Shown here: positions 3,309 to 49,955 of the stretch, in pieces
How positions within the stretch are numbered: position 1 is the first letter of the stretch
Layout of the letters: every line of letters starts with the position of its first letter
DNA from: a virus
Lineage: Duplodnaviria; Heunggongvirae; Uroviricota; Caudoviricetes
DNA: 51,594 nt
Virus record (IMG/VR): IMGVR_UViG_2563366877_000002
Direction: 5' to 3' (one strand)
Notes under the pieces: generated by a model
The model's input: only the letters and a program-made list of their open reading frames with translations
What the model was told of the DNA's origin: nothing
The model's database searches: none
Translations under genes and position numbers: made by a program

Positions 3309-3884
3309 CTACGGCAGTGCTGGCCATTCAATATCCTGTGCAGTTGACGTATCAACACGGTTCAGCAATACCCGATACTTTTTCCATGCTTCCAGCAACG
3401 AGATTTCTTCCTCCGTTGCAATTTCCAGATCTGCAGCATCCTGAAGCGGCGCAATATGCTCACTGGCTACCTGCATCAGGCTGTTTTTTGTTTCTTCCGC
3501 CTCCCGGATCCGGAACAGTTTTTCTGCTTCCGTATCCTTCACCCAGGCTGTGCCGTTCCACTTCTGATATTCCCCTCCCGGCGATAACCAGGTAACATTT
3601 TCCGGTAACGGACCGAGTTCAGAAATAAATAACGCGTCGCCGGAAGCCACGTCATAAACCGTTTTACCCCGATGTTCTTCAACGAGATGCCACGATGCCT
3701 CATCACTGTTGAAAACAGCCACGAAGCCTGCCGGAATATCTGGCGGTGCAATATCGATACTGTTTGCTGGCAGACCTGTATGAGGCGGAATATATGCGTC
3801 ACCTTCACCAATAAATTCATTAGTTCCGGCCAGCAGATTATAAATTTTTATGGTCCGTGGTTGTTCACTCATTCTGAATGCCAT
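3309..3884 (-). CDS. tfa: tail fiber assembly protein Tfa
   Basis: 191 aa, lambda Tfa-like; start overlaps stf stop (ATGA). Confidence 0.85.
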
Positions 3885-6800
3885 TATGCAAGCCTCACAA
3901 TATAGTTAAATGCGATGTTTTTGACGGTGTTTTCCGCGTTACCAGCAGCGTTAACGGTGATGGTATGTCCATGTGAACCAATCGCAACGGAGTGCGTATG
4001 AGCACCAATACCGACAGTATGTGCGTGTGCACCTGCGCTTGCAGCAGTACCCGATACAGAGTGCGTATGAGCGCCTGCAGAAGAAGTGTTAACACTGTAT
4101 TTAGAATAATCAGGTGATCCACTTCCCGGAGCACCACTGGAACCACCTGAAACAAATGTCATCGAATGGGTATGTGCACCGGCTGAAGCAGCCGTACCGC
4201 TAACACTATGGGTATGCGCACCAGTGTTATTCGTGGATTTAGTGCCGTAATCAAACGACGATGTGGTTTTCGTCCCCAAATCCGTACTGGATACGCTGGC
4301 GCTGTGGGTGTGTGATTTAATGCCGTCCTGTTCCTGAGACAATACGGCTCGATCACTGGCGGGCTTGCCCTTAATCGTCCAGCCACGCATATCAGGGATC
4401 ACGCCTGACGGATAAGCGGCTGCAAGTTTCGGGTAAGCAGATTTGTCAAAAGTCTGCCCCTGCATCAGGGCATAACCAGACGGAACGGTATCTGATGGCC
4501 ACGGGATTGGTGCACCGACTGGATAAAACTCTGCAGGAGGATGAGCCGAGGTGTAAAGCTGCGCCCACGGCGACCAGTTTGCGTCGGTCGTATCCCGTCG
4601 TGAACGAATAAATGCCGGAGCATGAGCACCGCTTGTACCACTCCAGCCGATGAGTAACTCACCTTCGCCAACGGCTGTCATCCCTTTCAGGTGAATGATA
4701 TTTCCATACGCTGTTGGATATCCGTTGTTATACACCTCGTATAACTCAAGACCTGTTGCCCCCTGCGTATTGTCTGTCAGCGCGGTTACCCGACCTTTTG
4801 AAGACAGATTAACTGATGATACTGCTGTTCCACCTGACGGTAACGCCCCGATCTCTGATGCCGTTGGCTTATTTCTGGAGTTATAGTCCCTTCGCCAGCC
4901 AGGTGAATAATCTGTTCCGTGATTAATATAGGTAAACTGGGCGTTAGTTGTTCCACCACCAGTGGAGGTGGTCGGTGTGGTAATGCGGATCGTCATCGCT
5001 GACTTTATCCCCATTACTTCAATGACAGCTCCGGCGAGATGAATATTACCGCAGCCAGTATCAGTAATGATTTTATTATTGCCATAAGACCAGGAACCCT
5101 TGCACATCCAGTATGGATGGTTAAATGCTCCCTGAGAATCCAGCCACTCGATAAACTGTGCAGTCGTCCAGTTTCCTGTTGTTGTGCTTACTGACCCACC
5201 GAAGGCACGGCAGGCACCAATATTTTTCGTAAAGGTGTCTTTGCCAGGGATATCCGCACCGTTCTGATCTTTCTGCAGACGTTTCTCAGCATTGTCATTG
5301 GCTGCTTTTACTGCCTTTGGCGTTGCCGCCAGCGTTTCAGACGTGCTGTTGGTCGCGCTGCTTAGCTGGATTATCCCTTTCTGTGCTGTCGTTGCATCCT
5401 GTGCGGTGTATTTCCCGTTAGCCAGGTCATACGCGGCCTTAACGGCTTTTGGCGTTGCCGCCAGTGACTCGGAAGTGCTGTTGGTCGCACTGCTGAGCTG
5501 TACTATCCCCTTTTTCGTCGTGCTCGCATCCTCAAGCGCCACGGCGGATGCAATATCCTCTGCCCGTTTTGCCGCTGTCTCAGCGCGCGTTGCTGCAGAT
5601 TCCGCCGTACTTTTGCTCTGAGCTGCTGCCGTCGCACTGCCAGCTGCCTCTGTCGCCTTCGTGGATGCCGTCGTGGCGCTACCCTTCGCTGCTGACGCCT
5701 GTCTGGTCGCCTCATCTTTTGAAGCAGACGCAGATGATGCCGATGACGACGCCGAACTGGCTGACGATGCGGCAGCCGTTTTTGAGGATTCTGCGCTGGT
5801 TTCCGACGCTTTCGCGTTCGTTTCGGATGTCTTCGCTGCGGAAGCAGACCTCGCTGCTGCGCTGGCCTGTTCAGTGGCTTCGCCAGCCTTCGTTGTGGCT
5901 GTTGAAGCAGACGATGCGGCGCTTTCTGCCGATTTTCCGGCGGCGGTGGCACTGGCTGAGGCCTGCCCGGCACTTGTTGACGCTGCACTGGCAGACGACG
6001 CAGCCGCTGTTTTTGAGCCTGCCGCAGCCGAGGCGCTCTGTCCCGCTGCCGTTTCAGAAGACCTGGCGTTCGTCTCTGACGTTTTTGCCGCCTTCGCGGA
6101 ATTTCCTGCCGCTGTTGCCGAGGAAGCTGCGCTACTGGCGCTCGAGGATGCGTTCGTTTCTGATGATTTTGCCGCCTCTTTTGAAACCGCCGCATCCCGG
6201 GCTGAGGTGGCAGCTTCTGACGCTTTCGTAGTCGCGGTGGATGCAGAAGTGGCTGCTGATTGTTGTGACGCTGCAGCATTCGTTTCTGACGTTTTCGCGG
6301 CACTGGCACTGGTAGCTGCCGCGCTTTTTGAGGACTCTGCAGCGGCAGCACTTTTTGATGCTTCAGTGGCCTTTGTTGATGCCGTTCCTGCGCTGGAAGT
6401 CGCTGACTGAGCCGACGACGCGGCCTGTCCGGCTGACGTGCTGGCTGCGCGTGCTGAGCCTGCAGCATCAGTCGCATGGGTTGCCGCCTCACGGGCTGAT
6501 GTGCTGGCATCACTGGCTGACTTCTTCGCGGCTGCCGTGTTCTGTGCCACCACGGACGCGTTACGCGCCACCTCTTCCACCATCAGCTCAAAACGGCGCA
6601 GTGCCTCCGGACGGGCATCATCCTCCGTCATGGCACCGAGAAAATCATTCAGCGTACCGGGTCGGGAATCTTCATACACTGTGATGGTCCCGGCATGTGA
6701 CGGCGGGAATCCTTCCACCAACAGAATAACGCTGTACTGACCGTACTCAACGTCCATACTGTAACGCCCGGCTTCATCCGGATTTTCAGATGCCAGCGTG

Positions 6801-6907
6801 TTCACCACCACCGTGGTACTGTTACGTTTTGCTTTCAGCTGGATTGTGCAGTTCTGTACCGGTTTTCCTGTGCCGTCTTTCAGTACACCTGAAATTTTTA
6901 CTGCCAT
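3884..6907 (-). CDS. stf: side tail fiber protein Stf (long form)
   Basis: N-terminus [26 protein letters not shown] as lambda Stf; long Ala/Ser/Thr-rich shaft; C-terminal GAHTHS His-rich repeats; start taken at lambda-equivalent Met. Confidence 0.85.
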
Positions 6908-6916
6908 ATTCACCCC

Positions 6917-39032: not shown

Positions 39033-39923
39033 TCAGGCTGCCAGATCATCGTTTCCGATGGAAGCATAATAAGCTTTTTCTGCTTCTGCCGGAGGAGTAT
39101 GGCCCAGCCTTTCCAGCAATCGTCGATTGTTATACCAGTCCACCCACGTGAGTGTGGCCAGTTCCACTTCTGCACGGTTTTTCCAGCTCTTACGGTGTAT
39201 TACCTCCGCTTTGTAAAGACCATTGATGCTCTCCGCCATCGCGTTGTCATACGAGTCGCCTGTACTTCCTGTTGATGCCAGTAATCCGGCTTCCTTAAGC
39301 CGCTGTGTGTAGGCCAGCGATACATACTGAGAACCTTTATCACTGTGATGGACCGTGCCGGACGGTCGACGGGCCCATAACGCCTGCTCCAGTGCATCCA
39401 GCACGAATGTCGTTTCCATGGACGATGAGACCCGCCACCCCACGATGTATCCGGCAAACACATCAATGATGAACGCCACATAGACGAAGCCCCGCCATGT
39501 GCTGACGTAAGTAAAATCAGCCACCCACAGCTGGTCAGGTCGTTCTGCCACGAACTGACGGTTTACGCGGTCGCCTGCGGCAACGGCTTTCCGGCTGATG
39601 GTCGTACGGACCTTTTTACCCCGGAGAACACCGGCAAGTCCCATAACCGCCATGAGACGTGCCACAGTGCATCTGGCCACTCTGATACCTTCCCGTAACA
39701 ACTGACGCCAGACTTTACGCACACCGTATACCTTGTGATTTTCATCGTATACGCGCTGTATCTCTTTCTTCAGCCAGTCATCGCGCTGCGCACGGGCACT
39801 GCGTTTATCCGGATGATGTCGCTGTTGCTGACAGTGGTAATACGTTGACGGGGCAATATGCAGTTCGCTGCATAGCGGTCCGACCCCGTACTGCTCACGC
39901 AGCTTATCCAGCAGTGGCATCAT
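39033..39923 (-). CDS. IS629-type transposase OrfB (rve)
   Basis: 296 aa DDE catalytic core. Confidence 0.85.
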
Positions 39924-41606: not shown

Positions 41607-42758
41607 TATTCCTCCTACAATCAATGTGCAATTACATTTAAACACACCTCAATTTGGCCGGACATATAAATATCTAAACCAGAAAAAATCACTTACATAG
41701 CGTTACAAACTCTTTAGTCTAAAGGTTCATCGTAAAACATTCCCCATACTTATCAGTCCGTTCCGCGCCAGGTAGCTCATTGCCTTATCTGGCAACCTGT
41801 AATCAGGTTTCCGCTTTTTCAGTTGGCTGGTCGTTTAACCGACATAGTTAACCCATTAATCTAGTTGCCGGATGTTGGTGGATTTTCGCGTTTTAGTTGT
41901 TCATAAAAGTGCACAGCTTTAACCAATTCTTCTGATGTAACCGGGACTGGTGAGGCAGTGAATAAGGCCTGAATTTGATAGTTCGGCCTGTCGTTACAAT
42001 CCTCTTTTTTCGGTACATATTTCCAGTCACCAGACCACTACTTCCCCTGAAAGTCCGTAACGCCTTTTTTCACGTAGCGATATCGCCATGTCACTGGTTT
42101 TGCTTGCCCCGCCGTTTCATGCCCTTCCTGATAATTAATCTCGCTCATTCATCGCCCCACTCATCACAATATGCTTCGACCGGAGTTTTTCCCGCTTCAT
42201 AGTCATCACGCTAGGATTCGACATCAGCAGCACTTCCACCGCGTAACTCACCATAGTCCATTAATAGTTCATCCCGCTCTTCAAAACTGATGTTATATTT
42301 AGCTGAACAAAAATCAGCCACTTTGTTCTTCCTCATCGTCTTTTATTTCGTGGTATGAGTAATTGCAGTAGTTAAAGAAAATTTCTTATGCTCCGTCATG
42401 AATTTCATCAGGTGTTGCGTCATCGTCCACTTCGAATACATCCTCAAAATCTCCACCAGCTATTCCCGTTTCAATAATAATTTTGAACTTTCGCATTTCA
42501 CTACCGCCCTTTCGGGCGGCCTCCTGATGTTCTGAGGGTGCAGAAATCCATCCGGTTAAGGATTAAGTTTTATTTACAGAACTGAATTTAATTATTCAGA
42601 TATACGTATCTGTAACCTTACGAATCTACTCACTGGATGCCTCTTTCATAAAAATAATCCAGTGGGTTTTATCGTTTTTTCCCTGTTCGTTGACAGATAA
42701 CAGGCTTTCTATCTGTCAGTGCCAGAATCTGGCTTACCGGTATTTGCGTTTCATTCCA

Positions 42759-43115
42759 TTAAAAAATCAGAACGCCGTGCGGCCTCAACACCCGAAAAGC
42801 TTCTTTAAATCTCTGTCGCAAATCATCACGCCAGGCATCTTTATTCAGCCGTCCATATTTCTTTCCCATCCAGGCGTTATCACCAACACGCTCAAGATGC
42901 GGAGGGTCTAATACAACCATCGAAAAAGATGCGTCTGCAAATGATAATGCACGAAAATCTGCGATAATGTCAGGGCTGATAATCAAGCGTCTCCCATTGC
43001 GTAATGTGTATCCTTCTTTTCTGATATCGCTGAATATCGCCCGTTTGTCAGACTTATCGAACCAGAACATGCGGCTGCCACAGCACATATCAAGAATGGT
43101 TGCCGGTGCACTCAC
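42759..43115 (-). pseudogene. methyltransferase-like protein, apparently C-terminally truncated
   Basis: motif I-like ILDMCCGSRMF and motif IV-like VVLDPPH; only 118 aa; downstream sequence has only short broken frames. Confidence 0.4.
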
Positions 43116-43534
43116 TGCGCCACGTCCTGAAAATTACCCTGATAGAAAGCCAGTATGCGCTGCATAACTTCGCTCTTCCGGCACTCGCGACAGATTATGT
43201 TTAGGCGACTGTCGTAGCGACGTATTTCTCCGTCAGGTGATGACCAGATAAGGTCCGGATCAACCACAGCAGGTTTCTTCACCTTTGCCCTCGAGAGTTT
43301 TTTGCGGGCGTTTTGCCAGTCCTTACGCGCCTGTTCAGAGGGGAATAACCCGTAGCCGGAGTTGTATACATCGCCACTGGCTACCAGCTCTCTGGCAAGA
43401 ACGCTCATCAGATATCTAGTCGCACCTGTTTTAGCTTCCAGTTGCCGTAACGTCTCACGGCCGCTCTGGCGCACGAGTTCCACCACCTGCCATTTAATTT
43501 TTTCCCGCTCTTCTTGTGTAAAAACTTTTGCCAC
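43112..43534 (-). CDS. hypothetical protein (140 aa) in replication module
   Basis: ORF translationally coupled (ATGA) to the methyltransferase-like gene; occupies helicase-loader position but too short to call. Confidence 0.45.
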   Translation of the reverse strand: MAKVFTQEEREKIKWQVVELVRQSGRETLRQLEAKTGATRYLMSVLARELVASGDVYNSGYGLFPSEQARKDWQNARKKLSRAKVKKPAVVDPDLIWSSPDGEIRRYDSRLNIICRECRKSEVMQRILAFYQGNFQDVAQ

Positions 43535-43574
43535 CAGTCCCCCTTAAAATTACCTCATGACCTGAAATCAACAC

Positions 43575-44540
43575 TTATCCTCTGAAACCAGGCGGAATTT
43601 CTGTATCCGGTTCAGAAATATGATTAACACAACGCTGTACAGGTGAACGTCCCAGGCGGATGACCAGTTCGTCCCATTTTTCGCGGAGCTTTGACGGGCT
43701 CATGATGTTTTTTACCCAGAATGGATCTCGCTGAACCCGACCAAACATTTCGCAAATTTGTCTGTGGCTTCTGCCATCCAGCATCCGCATTGTGCGCACG
43801 TCATTGGCCCAGGCAGTCCAGTTAGGCTCTTTTGGTCGCATGATCTCGCCATCATCACTGGCTGCCTGTTCGTAGAGACCCACGATCCGCCCCCAGATCC
43901 ACTGCGCACACGCCAAATCCTCCCTGCTACCCCACTGGCGTTTTTTCGCACTAAACACAACCGCGTCGGAGTTCCGGGTTAAAGAATCCTGTTCAGTCGT
44001 CTGCGGGTCCGGTTGCGAAGCTTCCGGACGAAAAGTGTTTTTATTCTCTGTAGTAATCTCTGTTGTATTCTCTGTAAGATCATCAGGCCATTTTGACCCG
44101 ATGACATTGGGTCGTTTTGAACCAATGGAGCGTTTCATTTTGACCTCTTCCATCGTGTCATTTTGACCTGATGGAGCGGCGCATTTTGAACCGATGGATT
44201 CGCTCAATTTGCCACCATCTAAAAGCTCGCTCCCATAGTTGATCGTGTAGAAATTGGTCATATCGCGCTTTGATTTATTGAGCTTTTCACAACGCAAAAG
44301 CCCCAGCGTTTTCAGACTTGCAAACGCGCGCTTTAACGTTGACTCTGACCAGAATGGGAACTGTTCCAGCCATTGTTCCGTTGTGTTATAAATCCAGCGA
44401 ACACCATCACATTCCATGCCGGAGTTGGTATCTCTCAACCAGTAGTGCAGTTGTTGCAAAACAATGGCTTCGTTTAAGCCAATTTTCATTGCCAGCTGCG
44501 TGTTTATAACCAGTGGGCGTTCAGCAAAAAGAAGGCTCAT
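43575..44540 (-). CDS. replication initiator (lambda O-like replisome organiser)
   Basis: N-terminal wHTH-like region; repeated SIGSK peptide repeats encoded by iteron DNA; position after cro/cII-like genes. Confidence 0.6.
   Translation of the reverse strand: MSLLFAERPLVINTQLAMKIGLNEAIVLQQLHYWLRDTNSGMECDGVRWIYNTTEQWLEQFPFWSESTLKRAFASLKTLGLLRCEKLNKSKRDMTNFYTINYGSELLDGGKLSESIGSKCAAPSGQNDTMEEVKMKRSIGSKRPNVIGSKWPDDLTENTTEITTENKNTFRPEASQPDPQTTEQDSLTRNSDAVVFSAKKRQWGSREDLACAQWIWGRIVGLYEQAASDDGEIMRPKEPNWTAWANDVRTMRMLDGRSHRQICEMFGRVQRDPFWVKNIMSPSKLREKWDELVIRLGRSPVQRCVNHISEPDTEIPPGFRG
44091..44220. repeat. iteron array, putative phage replication origin inside the initiator gene
   Basis: 5-6 direct repeats of cATTTTGA(C/A)C.. 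spaced 23-24 bp (TTTTGA at 44091, 44115, 44138, 44161, 44184); adjacent short TCTCTGT repeats at 44041-44090. Confidence 0.6.
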
Positions 44541-45042
44541 AATTCCATCCAGCTTTTTGTTGGTATTGCTGTCGATACGCAAGCTTGAAAGCAATTGCTT
44601 TTTCTATAAGTTCGTCAGTTTCACGATCCACTACGGCAGGATCAGCAAAAAGCAGTCCGGACTCCACCACATCGCCATATTCTTTGTTTAACCCGGCGAT
44701 CATGCACGTGATGCTTTTTCCGTCAGTAATTTCACGATACAACCTGAAATCACTAATCCGGATAGCCTCCATAATCGCAGGCACTAGCGCCGTGAACTTT
44801 TCACGCTTATCCCTGGTGTCGATAGCCTTCCAGCGTTCGAATATCTTCACTCGATTAACACCAAGCGCTCGCTGATCAACCGCGCCACCTTCATCTGTGA
44901 CACGCTGAACATCGATGTTCGGGCGCTCTTTCAAAGCCCAGAATGCTTCAGTGATTAATATCGTCGCCTGCTCCTGTGTCATTCCTGGTCGACATATCCA
45001 GGCATCCAGAGCCTCACGAGCCTGTTCAGGAGTGATTTTCAT
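44521..45042 (-). CDS. hypothetical regulatory protein in cII position (173 aa)
   Basis: ORF between cro-like dicC and the replication initiator; family not recognised. Confidence 0.45.
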   Translation of the reverse strand: MKITPEQAREALDAWICRPGMTQEQATILITEAFWALKERPNIDVQRVTDEGGAVDQRALGVNRVKIFERWKAIDTRDKREKFTALVPAIMEAIRISDFRLYREITDGKSITCMIAGLNKEYGDVVESGLLFADPAVVDRETDELIEKAIAFKLAYRQQYQQKAGWNYEPSFC

Positions 45043-45256
45043 TGTTCAACCACCCCGCCCGCTTCGTCTTACGATATTCATCATAAACTTTGGGATCATA
45101 CTGAAGCTCCCCGCCAGATGCCTCCTGTAGACGCATCGCGCGACCTTCGGGAACTAAATCCCCTTTCCAGCTATAAAGCGAAGCCAAACGAATACCTGCT
45201 GCTTGTGCAAGTTTTGTTTTTGAACCGAAATACAAAAGAGCGTCAGTTTTAAGCAT
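45026..45256 (-). CDS. dicC: Cro-like repressor DicC
   Basis: 76 aa, divergent from dicA across operator region. Confidence 0.75.
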   Translation of the reverse strand: MLKTDALLYFGSKTKLAQAAGIRLASLYSWKGDLVPEGRAMRLQEASGGELQYDPKVYDEYRKTKRAGWLNNENHS

Positions 45257-45260
45257 TTAA

Positions 45261-45327
45261 AACACTTTTATTGTTAGTCATAACTAACAAGATAGATGTT
45301 AACAAAAACATAGTCAATACGATTTAG
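45261..45327. promoter_or_regulatory. dicA-dicC intergenic operator/promoter region with palindromes
   Basis: perfect palindrome TTGTTAGTcataACTAACAA (45261-45280) and related TTAGCattaGCTAA (45314-45327). Confidence 0.5.
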
Positions 45328-45339
45328 CATTAGCTAACT

Positions 45340-45747
45340 ATGGAAACAAAAAATTTAACTATCGGCGAACGCATCAGGTATCGTCGGAAAAACCTCAAAC
45401 ACACCCAAAGGTCTCTTGCTAAAGCCCTGAAAATCTCCCATGTGTCTGTATCACAATGGGAACGGGGTGATAGTGAACCTACAGGGAAGAACCTTTTTGC
45501 CCTCAGCAAAGTATTGCAATGCTCACCAACATGGATTCTATTTGGCGATGAAGACAAGCAACCAACACCACCTGTTGAGAAGCCAGTTGCCTTATCCCCC
45601 AAAGAACTAGAGCTCCTTGAGCTGTTTAATGCACTGCCAGAATCAGAACAGGATACCCAGCTCGCCGAAATGCGAGCTCGAGTAAAAAACTTCAATAAAC
45701 TCTTTGAAGAATTACTAAAAGCCCGTCAGCGGACAAATAAAAGATAA
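45340..45747 (+). CDS. dicA: HTH (XRE family) repressor DicA
   Basis: 135 aa METKNLTIGERIRYRRKNLKHTQRSLAKALKISHVSVSQWERG. Confidence 0.85.
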   Translation: METKNLTIGERIRYRRKNLKHTQRSLAKALKISHVSVSQWERGDSEPTGKNLFALSKVLQCSPTWILFGDEDKQPTPPVEKPVALSPKELELLELFNALPESEQDTQLAEMRARVKNFNKLFEELLKARQRTNKR

Positions 45748-45913
45748 CATCATCAATGAGTTATCTTTTACCACATCAATTATGTTAGCTATAGCATACA
45801 AAATCACTTGACCGATATGTTAGTCATGGCTAATCTTGTTTGCATCAACACACCGCACGGTGTTCTCAGCAAACAGTTCCGCTACCCCAGCGTTAAGGGG
45901 AAATGAGGTCCGC

Positions 45914-46069
45914 ATGGATACTATCGATCTTGGCAACAACGAATCTCTGGTGTACGGCGTGTTTCCAAACCAGGACGGTACGTTCACCGCGATGACGTAT
46001 ACCAAAAGCAAAACGTTTAAAACCGAAAATGGTGCCCGTCGCTGGCTGGAAAGAAACTCAGGTGAGTGA
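45914..46069 (+). CDS. ydfA: small protein YdfA
   Basis: 51 aa MDTIDLGNNESLVYGVFPNQDGTF.. Confidence 0.7.
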   Translation: MDTIDLGNNESLVYGVFPNQDGTFTAMTYTKSKTFKTENGARRWLERNSGE

Positions 46070-46070
46070 T

Positions 46071-46199
46071 ATGGATTTCGACACAATCATGGAAAAAGCT
46101 TACGAAGAATACTTCGAAGGTCTTGCCGACGGCGAAGAAGCTCTCAGCTTCAACGAATTTAAACAGGCGCTTTCCAGTTCGGCAAAATCTAACGGCTGA
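46071..46199 (+). CDS. ydfB: small protein YdfB
   Basis: 42 aa MDFDTIMEKAYEEYFEGLADGEEALSFNEFKQALSSSAKSNG; hand translated; starts 1 nt after ydfA stop. Confidence 0.65.
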   Translation: MDFDTIMEKAYEEYFEGLADGEEALSFNEFKQALSSSAKSNG

Positions 46200-46228
46200 T
46201 AAGCGAAACAGCACCGCGAGGAATCAGT

Positions 46229-46447
46229 ATGCAGAAACGAGAACCCGTCATCATCGCGCCAGACTATACCGATGATGAACTTTATGAGTGGATGCGCCAG
46301 AAAATTAATGCAGCGCAGGATCTGAAATGGGCCGATGAAGCCAGGGCTAAGCAGGCTGAAAATCTGTCCGCTCTGGAGCAGGATATCACCAATCTGGAAA
46401 AAGCAGCGGCATTAAGCATTGCCAGAATGATTACATACCCGCGTTAA
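46229..46447 (+). CDS. ydfC: small protein YdfC
   Basis: 72 aa MQKREPVIIAPDYTDDELYEWMRQKI.. Confidence 0.7.
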   Translation: MQKREPVIIAPDYTDDELYEWMRQKINAAQDLKWADEARAKQAENLSALEQDITNLEKAAALSIARMITYPR

Positions 46448-46786
46448 TAGCTAACCAACGAAGCTAAGGTTGGTAATTAAGGAGTTCTCCACGGGTGAGG
46501 TGGAGTGCGTGCGCCGGACACGGGTGAGCATCCGGCACTGACAGTTTACTGAAAGGATATTTCCCTGAAAAGTCAGACCATAACGCGAAAGCGCACGGCG
46601 AGGTAGCTGGTTCATAGATAGCCTGTCGTTAAATTTTCGTCGACCGTGCGCTTCCGGTTGTGGCAACCCGCGAAATGGTGCGGCGGTAAGTATGGCGGGG
46701 TTATTTCTTCCCCGTTGAGGACACCGGGTTGTCAGGTTGACCATACGCTTAAGTGACAACCCCGCTGCAACGCCCTCTGTTATCAA

Positions 46787-47483: not shown

Positions 47484-49955
47484 ATGAGTAAAGTCTTTAT
47501 TTGCGCCGCTATTCCTGACGAACTGGCAACAAGGGAAGAAGGCGCTGTGGCTGTAGCCACAGCCATTGAAGCTGGCGACGAACGCCGTGCTCGAGCAAAA
47601 TTTCACTGGCAATTCCTGGAACATTATCCGGCTGCTCAGGACTGCGCTTATAAATTTATTGTCTGCGAGGATAAACCTGGCATACCCCGCCCTGCCCTCG
47701 ATTCATGGGATGCTGAATATATGCAGGAAAACCGCTGGGATGAGGAGTCTGCTTCTTTTGTCCCGGTTGAGACTGAATCCGATCCGATGAACGTCACTTT
47801 TGACAAGCTGGCCCCTGAAGTACAGAACGCTGTCATGGTTAAGTTCGACACATGTGAAAACATCACCGTTGATATGGTTATTAGCGCACAGGAATTGTTG
47901 CAGGAAGACATGGCAACATTCGACGGACATATCGTTGAAGCGTTGATGAAAATGCCAGAAGTTAACGCCATGTATCCGGAGCTTAAGTTGCACGCCATTG
48001 GGTGGGTTAAGCATAAATGTATTCCTGGTGCTAAATGGCCCGAAATTCAGGCAGAGATGCGCATCTGGAAAAAACGTCGCGAAGGTGAACGCAAGGAAAC
48101 CGGAAAATACACGTCTGTTGTTGATCTCGCCCGCGCCAGAGCCAATCAACAGTACACTGAAAATTCAACAGGAAAAATCAGCCCGGTCATTGCTGCCATT
48201 CATCGCGAATACAAGCAGACATGGAAAACACTGGATGACGAACTGGCCTACGCTCTCTGGCCTGGTGATGTGGATGCCGGAAACATTGACGGCAGCATCC
48301 ATCGCCGGGCAAAAAATGAAGTTATCGACAACGACCGCGAAGACTGGAAGCGTATCTCGGCATCAATGCGCAAACAGCCTGATGCCCTTCGCTACGACCG
48401 CCAAACTATTTTTGGCCTTGTCCGTGAGCGTCCGATCGACATTCACAAAGATCCCGTAGCACTGAACAAATATATCTGCGAATACCTGACGACAAAGGGC
48501 GTGTTTGAGAATGAAGAAACAGACCTGGGCACTGTTGATGTTCTCCAGTCATCAGAAACACAAACTGATGCAGTGGAAACTGAGGTATCTGATATCCCAA
48601 AAAATGAAACCGCGCCGGAAGCTGAACCATCTGTAGAGCGTGAGGGGCCGTTCTATTTCCTCTTCGCAGATAAGGACAGAGAAAAATACGGTCGCGCAAA
48701 CAAACTTTCTGGTCTGGATAAGGCACTGGCTGCTGGCGCCACTGAAATCACAAAAGAAGAATATTTTGCCCGAAAAAATGGCACATACACGGGCTTACCG
48801 CAAAATGTAGATACCGCTGAAGATTCAGAACAACCAGAGCCGATAAAAGTTACCGCTGACGAAGTAAACAAAATTATGCAGGCAGCCAATATCATCCAGC
48901 CTGACGCCGATAAGTTGCTTGCTGCATCACGTGGTGAATTTGTTGAAGGGATTAGTGACCCGAATGATCCGAAATGGGTTAAGGGGATCCAGACCCGCGA
49001 TTCTGTGAACCAGAACCAGCATGAATCGGAACGGAACTACCAAAAAGCGGAACAAAACAGCCCAAATGCGTTACAAAACGAGCCAGAAACGAAACAGCCT
49101 GAATCAGTGGCGCAACAGGAAGTGGAAAAAGTCTGCACCGCCTGCGGTCAGACCGGCGGCGGCAACTGCCCTGATTGTGGCGCGGTAATGGGCGACGCAA
49201 CATACCAGGAAACATTCGATGAAGAGTATCAGGTTGAAGTTCAGGAAGATGATCCGGAGGAAATGGAAGGCGCTGAACATCCACACAAGGAGAACACTGG
49301 CGGCAATCAGCATCACGATAGCGATAATGAAACTGGCGAGACGGCAGATCACTCAATTAAGGTGAACGGTCATCAAGAAATCACATCCACCAGCAGGACG
49401 TGTGACCATCTAATGATCGACCTTGAAACCATGGGAAAAAATCCTGATGCCCCGATCATCTCAATAGGTGCAATATTTTTCGATCCGCAAACCGGAGATA
49501 TGGGACCGGAATTTAGTAAGACTATCGATCTGGAAACTGCTGGCGGAGTCATTGATCGGGACACCATTAAATGGTGGCTTAAGCAATCACGCGAAGCGCA
49601 ATCTGCCATTATGACCGATGAAATCCCGTTGGATGATGCACTGTTACAATTGCGGGAATTTATCGACGAAAACTCCGGTGAATTTTTTGTTCAGGTCTGG
49701 GGAAATGGAGCCAACTTCGACAACACGATTTTGCGCCGTTCATACGAACGGCAGGGGATCCCCTGCCCGTGGCGTTACTACAACGATCGCGATGTACGCA
49801 CAATCGTTGAGCTGGGGAAAGCCATAGACTTCGATGCCAGAACGGCTATTCCATTCGAAGGTGAGCGCCATAATGCACTTGATGACGCCCGTTACCAGGC
49901 AAAATACGTTTCAGTTATCTGGCAAAAACTGATCCCGAGTCAGGCTGATTCTTAA
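47484..49955 (+). CDS. ydfE: large YdfE-like protein: acidic N-terminal region, C4 zinc ribbon, C-terminal DEDDh 3-prime to 5-prime exonuclease domain
   Basis: 823 aa from MSKVFICAAIPDEL; CTACGQTGGGNCPDCG; exo motifs DLET, GNGANFD, HNALDDA. Confidence 0.7.
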   Translation: MSKVFICAAIPDELATREEGAVAVATAIEAGDERRARAKFHWQFLEHYPAAQDCAYKFIVCEDKPGIPRPALDSWDAEYMQENRWDEESASFVPVETESDPMNVTFDKLAPEVQNAVMVKFDTCENITVDMVISAQELLQEDMATFDGHIVEALMKMPEVNAMYPELKLHAIGWVKHKCIPGAKWPEIQAEMRIWKKRREGERKETGKYTSVVDLARARANQQYTENSTGKISPVIAAIHREYKQTWKTLDDELAYALWPGDVDAGNIDGSIHRRAKNEVIDNDREDWKRISASMRKQPDALRYDRQTIFGLVRERPIDIHKDPVALNKYICEYLTTKGVFENEETDLGTVDVLQSSETQTDAVETEVSDIPKNETAPEAEPSVEREGPFYFLFADKDREKYGRANKLSGLDKALAAGATEITKEEYFARKNGTYTGLPQNVDTAEDSEQPEPIKVTADEVNKIMQAANIIQPDADKLLAASRGEFVEGISDPNDPKWVKGIQTRDSVNQNQHESERNYQKAEQNSPNALQNEPETKQPESVAQQEVEKVCTACGQTGGGNCPDCGAVMGDATYQETFDEEYQVEVQEDDPEEMEGAEHPHKENTGGNQHHDSDNETGETADHSIKVNGHQEITSTSRTCDHLMIDLETMGKNPDAPIISIGAIFFDPQTGDMGPEFSKTIDLETAGGVIDRDTIKWWLKQSREAQSAIMTDEIPLDDALLQLREFIDENSGEFFVQVWGNGANFDNTILRRSYERQGIPCPWRYYNDRDVRTIVELGKAIDFDARTAIPFEGERHNALDDARYQAKYVSVIWQKLIPSQADS

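Follow-up and report, generated by a model that had tools for sequence, protein, structure and literature searches.

Replication origins of lambdoid phages generally consist of iterons followed by an A+T-rich segment (PMC7466680, PMC8022706); in Stx phages there are six iterons, with weak binding at the distal ones, and the λ O initiator binds A+T-rich single-stranded DNA (ssDNA) (PMC7466680). The pSK41 Rep protein recognises, through its N-terminal domain, four boxes in the centre of the rep gene itself; the origin encodes the middle part of the protein, a dispensable linker, and the C-terminal domain recruits the host DnaG (PMC5703833). Iterons of the RepA_N family are semi-palindromic repeats converging on a poly-A tract, and the RepA_N-like fold has been reported to be rare in Gram-negative bacteria (PMC7145576). 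Here we describe a phage-derived stretch of 51,594 nucleotides (IMG/VR record IMGVR_UViG_2563366877_000002; the whole stretch is hereafter the window), in which the replication initiator gene (43575..44540, minus strand; 321 amino acids (aa), ATG at 44540, with a TTG further upstream at 44594 in the list of open reading frames (ORFs)) carries an array of 23-bp iterons and a block of 12-bp repeats (12-mers). The array and the 12-mers together very likely serve a lambdoid (Qin/mEp460-like) prophage as its vegetative replication origin, located inside its own initiator gene. Computation revealed phased palindromic sites under DNA-level constraint, which adjoin the weakest duplex of a gene encoding an initiator with a λ O C-terminal domain. 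Such an origin is of a kind already well known, an iteron origin within the initiator gene; the family itself is uncharacterised.

The 23-bp array and the 12-mer block

The array (44081..44219, minus strand; codons 108-153 of 321) comprises six 23-bp units, which in coding-strand order occupy 44197-44219, 44174-44196, 44151-44173, 44128-44150, 44105-44127 and 44081-44103, with spacings of 23, 23, 23, 23 and 24 bp. A sequence-only reading of the window had described five to six direct repeats of about 23 bp at a spacing of 23-24 bp, and this was reproduced on recount: a repeat search gave start-to-start spacings of 23, 23, 23 and 24, 46, 23, and the tandem-repeat check proposed in that reading, run with Tandem Repeats Finder (TRF), recovered a period-23 array at 44115-44198 (3.7 copies) as well as a period-12 array at 44045-44076 (2.7 copies). 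At a TRF score of at least 60, the period-23 array is the sole tandem repeat in the whole 51.6-kb window. The period-23 autocorrelation of 44081-44219 was 0.56, compared to a shuffle mean of 0.34 (sd 0.021, maximum 0.45, n=5000; z=10.6), a level reached by just 0.1% of all 139-nt segments of the sequence, and the three exact copies of the core GGTCAAAATG that the window contains all fall within the array.

The units match the consensus CATCGGGTCAAAATGACCCGATC at 15, 19, 20, 16, 18 and 20 of 23 positions (coding-strand order). This consensus is a near-palindrome, CATCGGGTCA-AAA-TGACCCGATG, self-complementary at 18 of its 23 positions, in which inverted half-sites converge on an A-tract. Four of the units are good, one has degenerate arms and one, the outermost, is weak, the latter being nearer the consensus in relatives (GAGGTCAAAGTGA). 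The initiator gene therefore holds at its middle at least four dyad-symmetric direct repeats, as expected of a λ-type origin, and the iterons are conserved in mEp460 variants and one Klebsiella phage.

The periodicity might instead have arisen from a duplicated coding segment, in which case the repeats would be tandem repeats at the peptide level, making up a flexible linker of the SIGSK type that plays no role in cis. Indeed, three units encode (S/V)IGSK, and the repeat region lies between two folded domains and has a linker-like composition. However, 23 is not a multiple of 3, so that the six units start in codon phases 1, 3, 2, 1, 3 and 3; (S/V)IGSK is encoded by just three units that share the same phase, the others reading DGGKLS, PSGQND and EEVKMK. 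The SIGSK peptide repeats pointed out in the sequence-only reading are accordingly present in three of six units and replaced by unrelated peptides, in different phases, in the other three, as befits a by-product. Two stretches of period 21 were also observed elsewhere in the window, one at 5722-6591 within an Ala/Ser-rich tail-fibre ORF of 1009 aa (3884-6913, minus strand), the other at 48984-49122 in a region matching the RecE-type exonuclease gene of a related Escherichia coli record. In contrast to the 23-bp array, these two genuine peptide-repeat regions of the window have a period that is a multiple of 3.

Sequence diversity pointed in the same direction. Eighty close relatives from IMG/VR, where at least 596 loci are found, provided 53 distinct full-length alleles. 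Third-position diversity among them was 0.022 in gene nt 322-510 versus 0.145 in the rest of the gene (Mann-Whitney p=7e-8), and synonymous-site diversity was 6.6-fold lower in this stretch, which spans the iterons and the 12-mers. First and second codon positions were, by contrast, more diverse inside (0.036) than in the rest of the gene (0.022). The combination of low third-position and raised first- and second-position diversity, which is the opposite of protein-level selection, indicates selection on nucleotides and relaxed selection on the protein, and fits the pattern expected of a cis-acting site overlapping a linker. On the strength of the reading-frame phases and these diversity data, the peptide-repeat explanation was rejected as highly improbable. 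We propose that the central ~90 residues are mainly a linker whose sequence is dictated by overlapping DNA signals.

The array is directly followed, in the gene direction, by three 12-bp units of ACAGAGAWTAC (44042..44077, minus strand; ACAGAGAATAC-A / ACAGAGATTAC-T / ACAGAGAATAA), a candidate DNA-unwinding and helicase-entry element. TCTCTGT-type repeats had previously been seen as preceding the iterons; three 12-bp units do exist, but in the gene direction they lie downstream, and they coincide with the low-stability element. The GC minimum (0.30, at 44040-44079) falls on the block, and among all 40-bp duplexes of the gene the one at 44038-44078 is the least stable, with a nearest-neighbour ΔG of -45.6 against a gene mean of -56.5 (sd 3.6), about 3 sd away. 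Third-position diversity in the block is as low as 0.009. An A+T-rich, easily melted region right downstream of the iterons, another feature of λ-type origins, is thus present. Just past the 12-mers lies a G+C-rich inverted repeat, GTCCGG-N11-CCGGAC (44007..44029, not assigned to a strand), which also falls within low synonymous diversity (third-position diversity 0.015 for 44001-44030) and may have a role in the origin; the GTCCGG motif reappears after the 12-mers, in the same relative position, in many unrelated loci. Along transcription from the pR-like promoter the order of elements is therefore iterons, low-stability region and inverted repeat. The gene contains no DnaA box, the closest match being TTTTACACA at 43515; a DnaA-dependent origin is not indicated. 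A non-coding RNA was rejected as a candidate because an Rfam scan of 42000-46500 at E<=1 found no family, and a search for internal promoters or terminators at the array found none, the only sites being the pR-like one 5' of cro and weak hairpins elsewhere.

Initiator-binding sites may also serve control, that is autoregulation, titration or handcuffing, or the exclusion of related phages, with the true origin located elsewhere. Iteron plasmids use the same sites for copy-number control, and excerpts of two papers report that ectopic copies of the λ origin inhibit phage growth (PMC4488673, PMC3349717). However, the array lies right beside the weakest duplex of the gene, array and conserved 12-mer block together make up the complete anatomy of the λ, P22 and pSK41 origins (PMC5703833), and TRF at the above score detected no second tandem repeat anywhere in the window. 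Control and origin roles are not mutually exclusive. It appears quite unlikely that the array has control functions with an origin elsewhere, and the candidate origin with the layout of λ ori in gene O, as first suggested from the sequence, is supported by the mid-gene iterons followed by an A+T-rich stretch, by the DNA-level constraint and by co-inheritance of the array with the N-terminal domain (see below).

The initiator protein and helicase loading

The initiator protein matches PHROG 391, 'replication initiation O-like' (E=6e-91). BLASTP aligned aa 147-294 of its C-terminal half with residues 135-270 of λ O (34% identity over 148 aa, E=5e-26), and tblastn of λ O against the window gave E=5e-21. 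The C-terminal domain (C-domain; aa ~207-294, 43659..43922, minus strand) is homologous to the C-terminal, P-interacting domain of λ O. The designation as an O-like initiator is therefore justified for the C-terminal half, but not for the N-terminal domain (N-domain; aa 1-107, 44220..44540, minus strand), a predicted winged-helix origin-binding domain that is not of the Phage_rep_O family. Pfam gave no hit of any kind in the N-terminal 107 residues: neither the whole protein at E<=0.01 nor aa 1-109 at E<=1 matched Phage_rep_O (Pfam PF04492), whereas the N-domains of λ O (E=6e-37) and P22 gp18 (E=1e-38), used as positive controls in the same Pfam scan, did so. The alignment of the family against the λ O N-domain in hhalign gave a probability of 0.05%. 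RepA_N (Pfam PF06970) was also absent from the Pfam scans (whole protein E<=0.01, N-domain E<=1), and a search of PDB sequences with the family profile retrieved neither 4PTA nor related RepA chains. Pfam, the PDB profile search and hhalign thus revealed no sequence-level relationship of the N-domain to λ O, RepA_N or a solved structure.

A predicted model of the isolated N-domain displayed a DnaD-NTD-like winged-helix fold, as in the RepA_N initiators. By predicted fold the RepA_N plasmid initiators appear to be its nearest match, and only the predicted fold links the N-domain to RepA_N and DnaD. In a homologue search with the N-domain, all of the 120 proteins listed were shorter than 190 aa and all but one (a DUF4222 match) were without Pfam domains; these short homologues were used for the structure alignment and not for full-length analysis. 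The MSLLF... start of the initiator is also kept in distant homologues.

The C-terminal 20-aa tail, QRCVNHISEPDTEIPPGFRG (43578..43637, minus strand), resembles the C-terminus of the host primosomal protein DnaT, with 14 of 20 residues identical to that of E. coli, and phmmer against PDB sequences retrieved the DnaT chains 2ru8, 6aep and 9zbt_D (E=2e-4 to 5e-4). The similarity does not extend to full-length DnaT: the NCBIfam model NF002770 (cutoff 201 bits) scored 16.2 bits, on the last 20 residues only. Relatives with other C-domains retain the tail (…DYSQIPAGFRG, …DYSVPAGFRS; pattern …D(Y)S(Q)(I/V)PAGFR(G/S)), and the resemblance may represent mimicry of a host primosome protein. According to excerpts of a paper on the preprimosome, the DnaT C-domain docks on PriA and the DnaT linker on PriB (PMC13377028); the last 20 residues of DnaT are not mentioned in those excerpts, and our literature search returned nothing on a PPGFRG tail.

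A P or helicase gene adjoining the initiator, as in λ-type origins, is missing, the next gene being DUF977/LygF. tblastn of λ P, P22 gp12, an Stx-phage helicase and two DnaC-like proteins gave no match in the 51.6-kb window, and no helicase loader or helicase gene lies beside the initiator in PhiR42_1, the mEp460 phages and the Klebsiella phage examined. Because there is no phage P, DnaC or DnaB gene here, loading probably proceeds via the host DnaB-DnaC; the DnaT-like tail, being kept with other C-domains, suggests the use of host primosome or DnaB-DnaC proteins. On the tentative wider reading set out below, the E. coli module would have lost any phage helicase loader and might plug into the host restart primosome via its DnaT-tail mimic.

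Taken together, the following mechanism can be envisaged. Dimers of the N-terminal winged-helix domain would bind the six near-palindromic 23-bp iterons, and the phased array, centred on A-tracts, would be bent or wrapped into an 'O-some'-like complex by analogy with λ O and pSK41 RepA. The resulting stress would open the 12-mer segment at 44042-44077, where the computed duplex stability is lowest. The λ-O-type domain and the copy of the DnaT tail would then bring in the host helicase; loading is probably by the host DnaB-DnaC, possibly through restart-primosome proteins, and this is the weakest step of the scheme.

Relatives, gene neighbourhood and distribution

A Klebsiella prophage-type phage (L006) has the N-domain, iterons and 12-mers in common with the window (78% nucleotide identity). 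The similarity breaks off at 44042, exactly where the 12-mer block has its distal edge, and the C-domain is different. Stx-converting phages have an unrelated N-domain and GGGAAAC-type iterons, the common part being only the 40-bp 12-mer block at 97.5% identity; in an Stx2a phage, window positions 44042-44081 match L002 2501-2540 between otherwise unrelated halves of the O gene. Judged from these alignments, the 12-mer block looks like a junction for the exchange of N-domain-plus-iteron modules and C-domains.

Distant homologues were picked by N-domain protein similarity alone, from phages of Erwinia, Klebsiella, Pseudomonas, Bacillus and Staphylococcus. They carry 22-24-bp arrays of their own, at the same position in the gene and with differing sequences. 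Erwinia PEp14 has five units in 23/24-bp steps with one 48-bp gap (GAAGAGGGCAAATTGCCCT, given also as GGGCAAATTGCCC), Klebsiella SopranoGao four to five units of 23 bp (GGGGCAAAATGC) and Bacillus BMBtp2 an array with a 23-bp period and an autocorrelation of 0.69 (GTGTCAAAATGAATCAATG, given also as GTGTCAAAATGAATC). In Staphylococcus fPfSau02, whose N-domain is 52% identical to that of the prophage initiator, three to four units of 22/23 bp (L091 1814-1889; AGGTCAAAATGACCCGAC, AGGTCAAAATGACC) have a core equal to that of the E. coli prophage; conservation of the putative binding site and of the domain spans Gram-positive and Gram-negative hosts. The array travels and changes with the N-domain, as an initiator and the sites it binds would be expected to do.

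The 12-mer was also traced more widely. A scan of IMG/VR with ACAGAGANTACNACAGAGA gave at least 120 stretches, of which 80 were read, so that the frequencies below come from samples. The motif was in the same codon phase in 74 of the 80, mostly within an ORF of ~250-370 aa and most often at residues ~135-200. Within the 140 nt upstream of the motif, the best period was exactly 23 bp in 53 and 22-24 bp in 64 of the 69 analysable loci, and the periodicity exceeded that of shuffles at z>4 in 60 of them. The consensus units of the iterons vary widely between these loci, many having no common recognisable sequence. By BLASTP single linkage, 63 of 68 N-domains fell into one cluster with the window's protein, and the λ O N-domain fell outside it. 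The ACAGAGAnTAC unit usually occurs in two to four copies, right downstream of 22-24-bp arrays whose sequences are often unrelated to one another, in initiator genes of phages and prophages from several bacterial phyla.

A scan of genome contigs with the same motif, taking a single genome for each species, gave matches in many taxa, and 80 of the matches listed were read. Strict filtering, which required the motif to be in phase within an ORF of 200 aa or more and a period of 22-24 at z>4, left 34 of these, with loci from alpha-, beta- and gamma-Proteobacteria, Desulfuromonas, many Firmicutes, Chloroflexi (Thermanaerothrix, Amarolinea), a cyanobacterium (Chlorogloeopsis) and Gracilibacteria. 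A Fibrobacteres contig has a like layout with a period of 21. For 17 fixed bases ~70 chance matches are expected in this collection, and some matches are clearly due to chance (RDYDRD- and TETT-repeat proteins); the context features separate the two classes. Loci chosen by an exact 12-mer are unusable for an argument from codon invariance, and this evidence is limited to the protein-selected set of 14 loci: in these motif-independent homologues, the Thr-Glu codons before the variable base are nearly always ACA GAG. In Bacillus BMBtp2 the 12-mer units are 11 and 10 nt apart (IPETTQRIPETT), which puts the middle unit into a different reading frame. Lactobacillus, Burkholderia and Bacteroides phages display a 12-nt-periodic CCAGATA variant.

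The literature search yielded no description of the 12-mer motif in an origin context, and we regard the wider pattern as a lead rather than a result. It is conceivable, at a tentative level, that the window's origin is one instance of a very widespread, undescribed design that combines a winged-helix N-domain absent from Pfam, iterons of almost any sequence at a fixed period of 22-24 bp, an invariant 12-nt ACAGAGAnTAC single-strand element, preserved at the DNA level in several bacterial phyla and in more than one reading frame, and interchangeable C-domains. In that design the constant 12-mer could be recognised by a constant part of the system, namely a conserved surface of the initiator on the opened strand, by analogy with oriC and RK2; alternatively, it could be read by the entry or priming machinery. 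The strand complementary to the 12-mers carries CTG once per 12 nt, about one primer length, and CTG is the start trinucleotide of E. coli DnaG. If the design is true, the 12-mer would be a simple signature to locate such origins in phage and prophage genomes of many phyla.

The initiator gene is positioned as in a lambdoid early-right operon, after cro (45026-45256, minus strand) and a cII/YdaT-like gene (44521-45042, minus strand). A pR-like promoter (45289..45317, minus strand; TTGACT-17-TATCTT, from a consensus scan) lies 5' of cro, the cII/YdaT-like gene and the initiator gene, and a cI-like repressor gene (45340-45747) is on the plus strand. Transcription from pR would pass through the origin and, by analogy with λ, might have an activating role. 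Directly after the initiator gene comes the DUF977/LygF ('Ren-like') gene, and further on a truncated methyltransferase ORF (42759-43115), whose 118 aa correspond to positions 52-165 of a 229-position family profile. An equal gene arrangement is annotated in Escherichia phages PhiR42_1, HannyBb and mEp460, and both the initiator gene and the array are present in these records, which were deposited as complete phage genomes; in PhiR42_1 the initiator gene (99.8% identical) is annotated as 'DNA replication protein O'. In E. coli chromosomes the setting of the origin region is a Qin-like prophage. Local decay beside an intact initiator gene was also observed in related records, which contain a frameshifted methyltransferase and fragments of insertion sequences (IS) or transposases.

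This setting raises the question of whether the locus is a true origin by descent that is now an inert relic in a decaying Qin-like prophage. The decay of the neighbourhood (frameshifted methyltransferase, partial IS transposase, cargo genes of the K-12 Qin type) and the lack of a helicase-loader gene in the window are in keeping with this. However, the initiator ORF is intact and nearly identical to that of the deposited phage PhiR42_1, with the same neighbours; the mEp460 phages and the Klebsiella phage examined likewise have no loader gene beside the initiator; and purifying selection on the DNA signals is strong over the 53 alleles. An inert relic therefore seems unlikely. Several points nevertheless weigh against the assignment of an origin in general. 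With a length of ~40 bp and a GC of 0.30, the A+T-rich block is short and its A+T bias only moderate, two of the six iteron units are degenerate, and the prophage in the window may be defective, with a frameshifted methyltransferase and an IS fragment nearby. The initiator has neither a helicase loader nor a helicase gene at its side, which leaves the scheme short of an explanation for what follows unwinding. Furthermore, the literature search found no paper on the origin of this phage family or on 'initiator-solo' modules.

Of 5426 complete E. coli genomes, 1996 (37%) contain the 401-bp origin region (43900-44300), which in nearly every case is chromosomal. All eight RefSeq E. coli records listed annotate the initiator gene as a 'hypothetical protein', and the one RefSeq record examined in detail has no annotated origin feature. 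The value of the finding itself therefore lies in the annotation of a common, uncharacterised E. coli prophage family. A known origin together with its specificity determinant helps to predict cross-activation or exclusion among co-resident prophages, and the location of the origin tells where in-situ amplification begins after induction. Most worth pursuing are the conservation of the 12-mer, the fixed phasing at 23 bp and the mimic of the DnaT tail; the mimic, if true, would provide a testable route to P-independent helicase loading.

Comparison with known origins

The locus resembles λ ori in gene O in its central position within the initiator gene and in its dyad-symmetric iterons ~23 bp apart; in λ the iterons, at 39034-39118 (L003 1035-1119), start 20, 24 and 23 bp apart. 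In both, the iterons are followed along transcription by an A+T-rich region and then a palindrome, TCAGAGAATTCTGGCGAATCCTCTGA in λ, to the right of the A+T-rich region, where GTCCGG-N11-CCGGAC is similarly placed in the prophage. In both, the initiator gene also comes after cro and a cII-like gene within the early-right operon. Unlike in λ, however, the prophage N-domain is not Phage_rep_O, the iteron sequence is unrelated, there are six iteron units instead of four, and the A+T-rich part is made of 12-bp ACAGAGAWTAC units in place of the ACAAAAGACA type. The prophage initiator is also not followed by a P gene, and its DnaT-like tail is absent from λ O. The degenerate outer unit of the prophage array is reminiscent of the weak distal iterons of Stx phages.

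P22 gene 18 likewise has an annotated rep_origin within the gene, with four iterons followed by an A+T-rich segment of repeated ACAAAAGACAATA. It differs from the prophage gene in the Phage_rep_O N-domain of gp18, in the helicase gene gp12 (DnaB-type) next to it, and in both the iterons and the A+T-rich repeat. By our own count the P22 iteron starts (L212 1341-1420) are 20, 24 and 23 bp apart, apparently as in λ, although the iteron sequences differ, and the A+T-rich parts of λ and P22 both hold a ACAAAAGACA-type repeat.

The 12-mers can be compared with the 13-mers of oriC, RK2 and F, which are also short direct repeats (12-13 nt) forming a low-stability region next to the double-stranded sites of the initiator, and which in those systems are bound by the initiator in single-stranded form; an excerpt of PMC10602881 describes Rep proteins as holding the double-stranded iterons and the ssDNA of the unwinding element together. 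The sequences are unrelated, however, and the prophage 12-mer differs in lying within a coding region and in being constant while the iterons vary.

With the RepA_N initiators of pSK41 and pTZ2162 (RepA, PDB 4PTA), the prophage system shares a three-part protein, an ori located centrally in rep and a linker encoded by the origin, and the central origin with semi-palindromic iterons converging on a poly-A tract (PMC5703833, PMC7145576) is also found here. N- and C-domains are swapped as modules in both cases, as described for pPR9 (PMC5703833) and as seen in the Klebsiella and Stx comparisons above. In contrast, the prophage initiator has no match to RepA_N at the sequence level, belongs to a phage in a Gram-negative host and not to a plasmid, and carries a λ-O-like C-domain instead of the staphylococcal DnaG-binding domain. 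If true, the combination of a RepA_N-like N-domain with a λ O C-domain would link two origin-in-gene systems that are usually treated apart.

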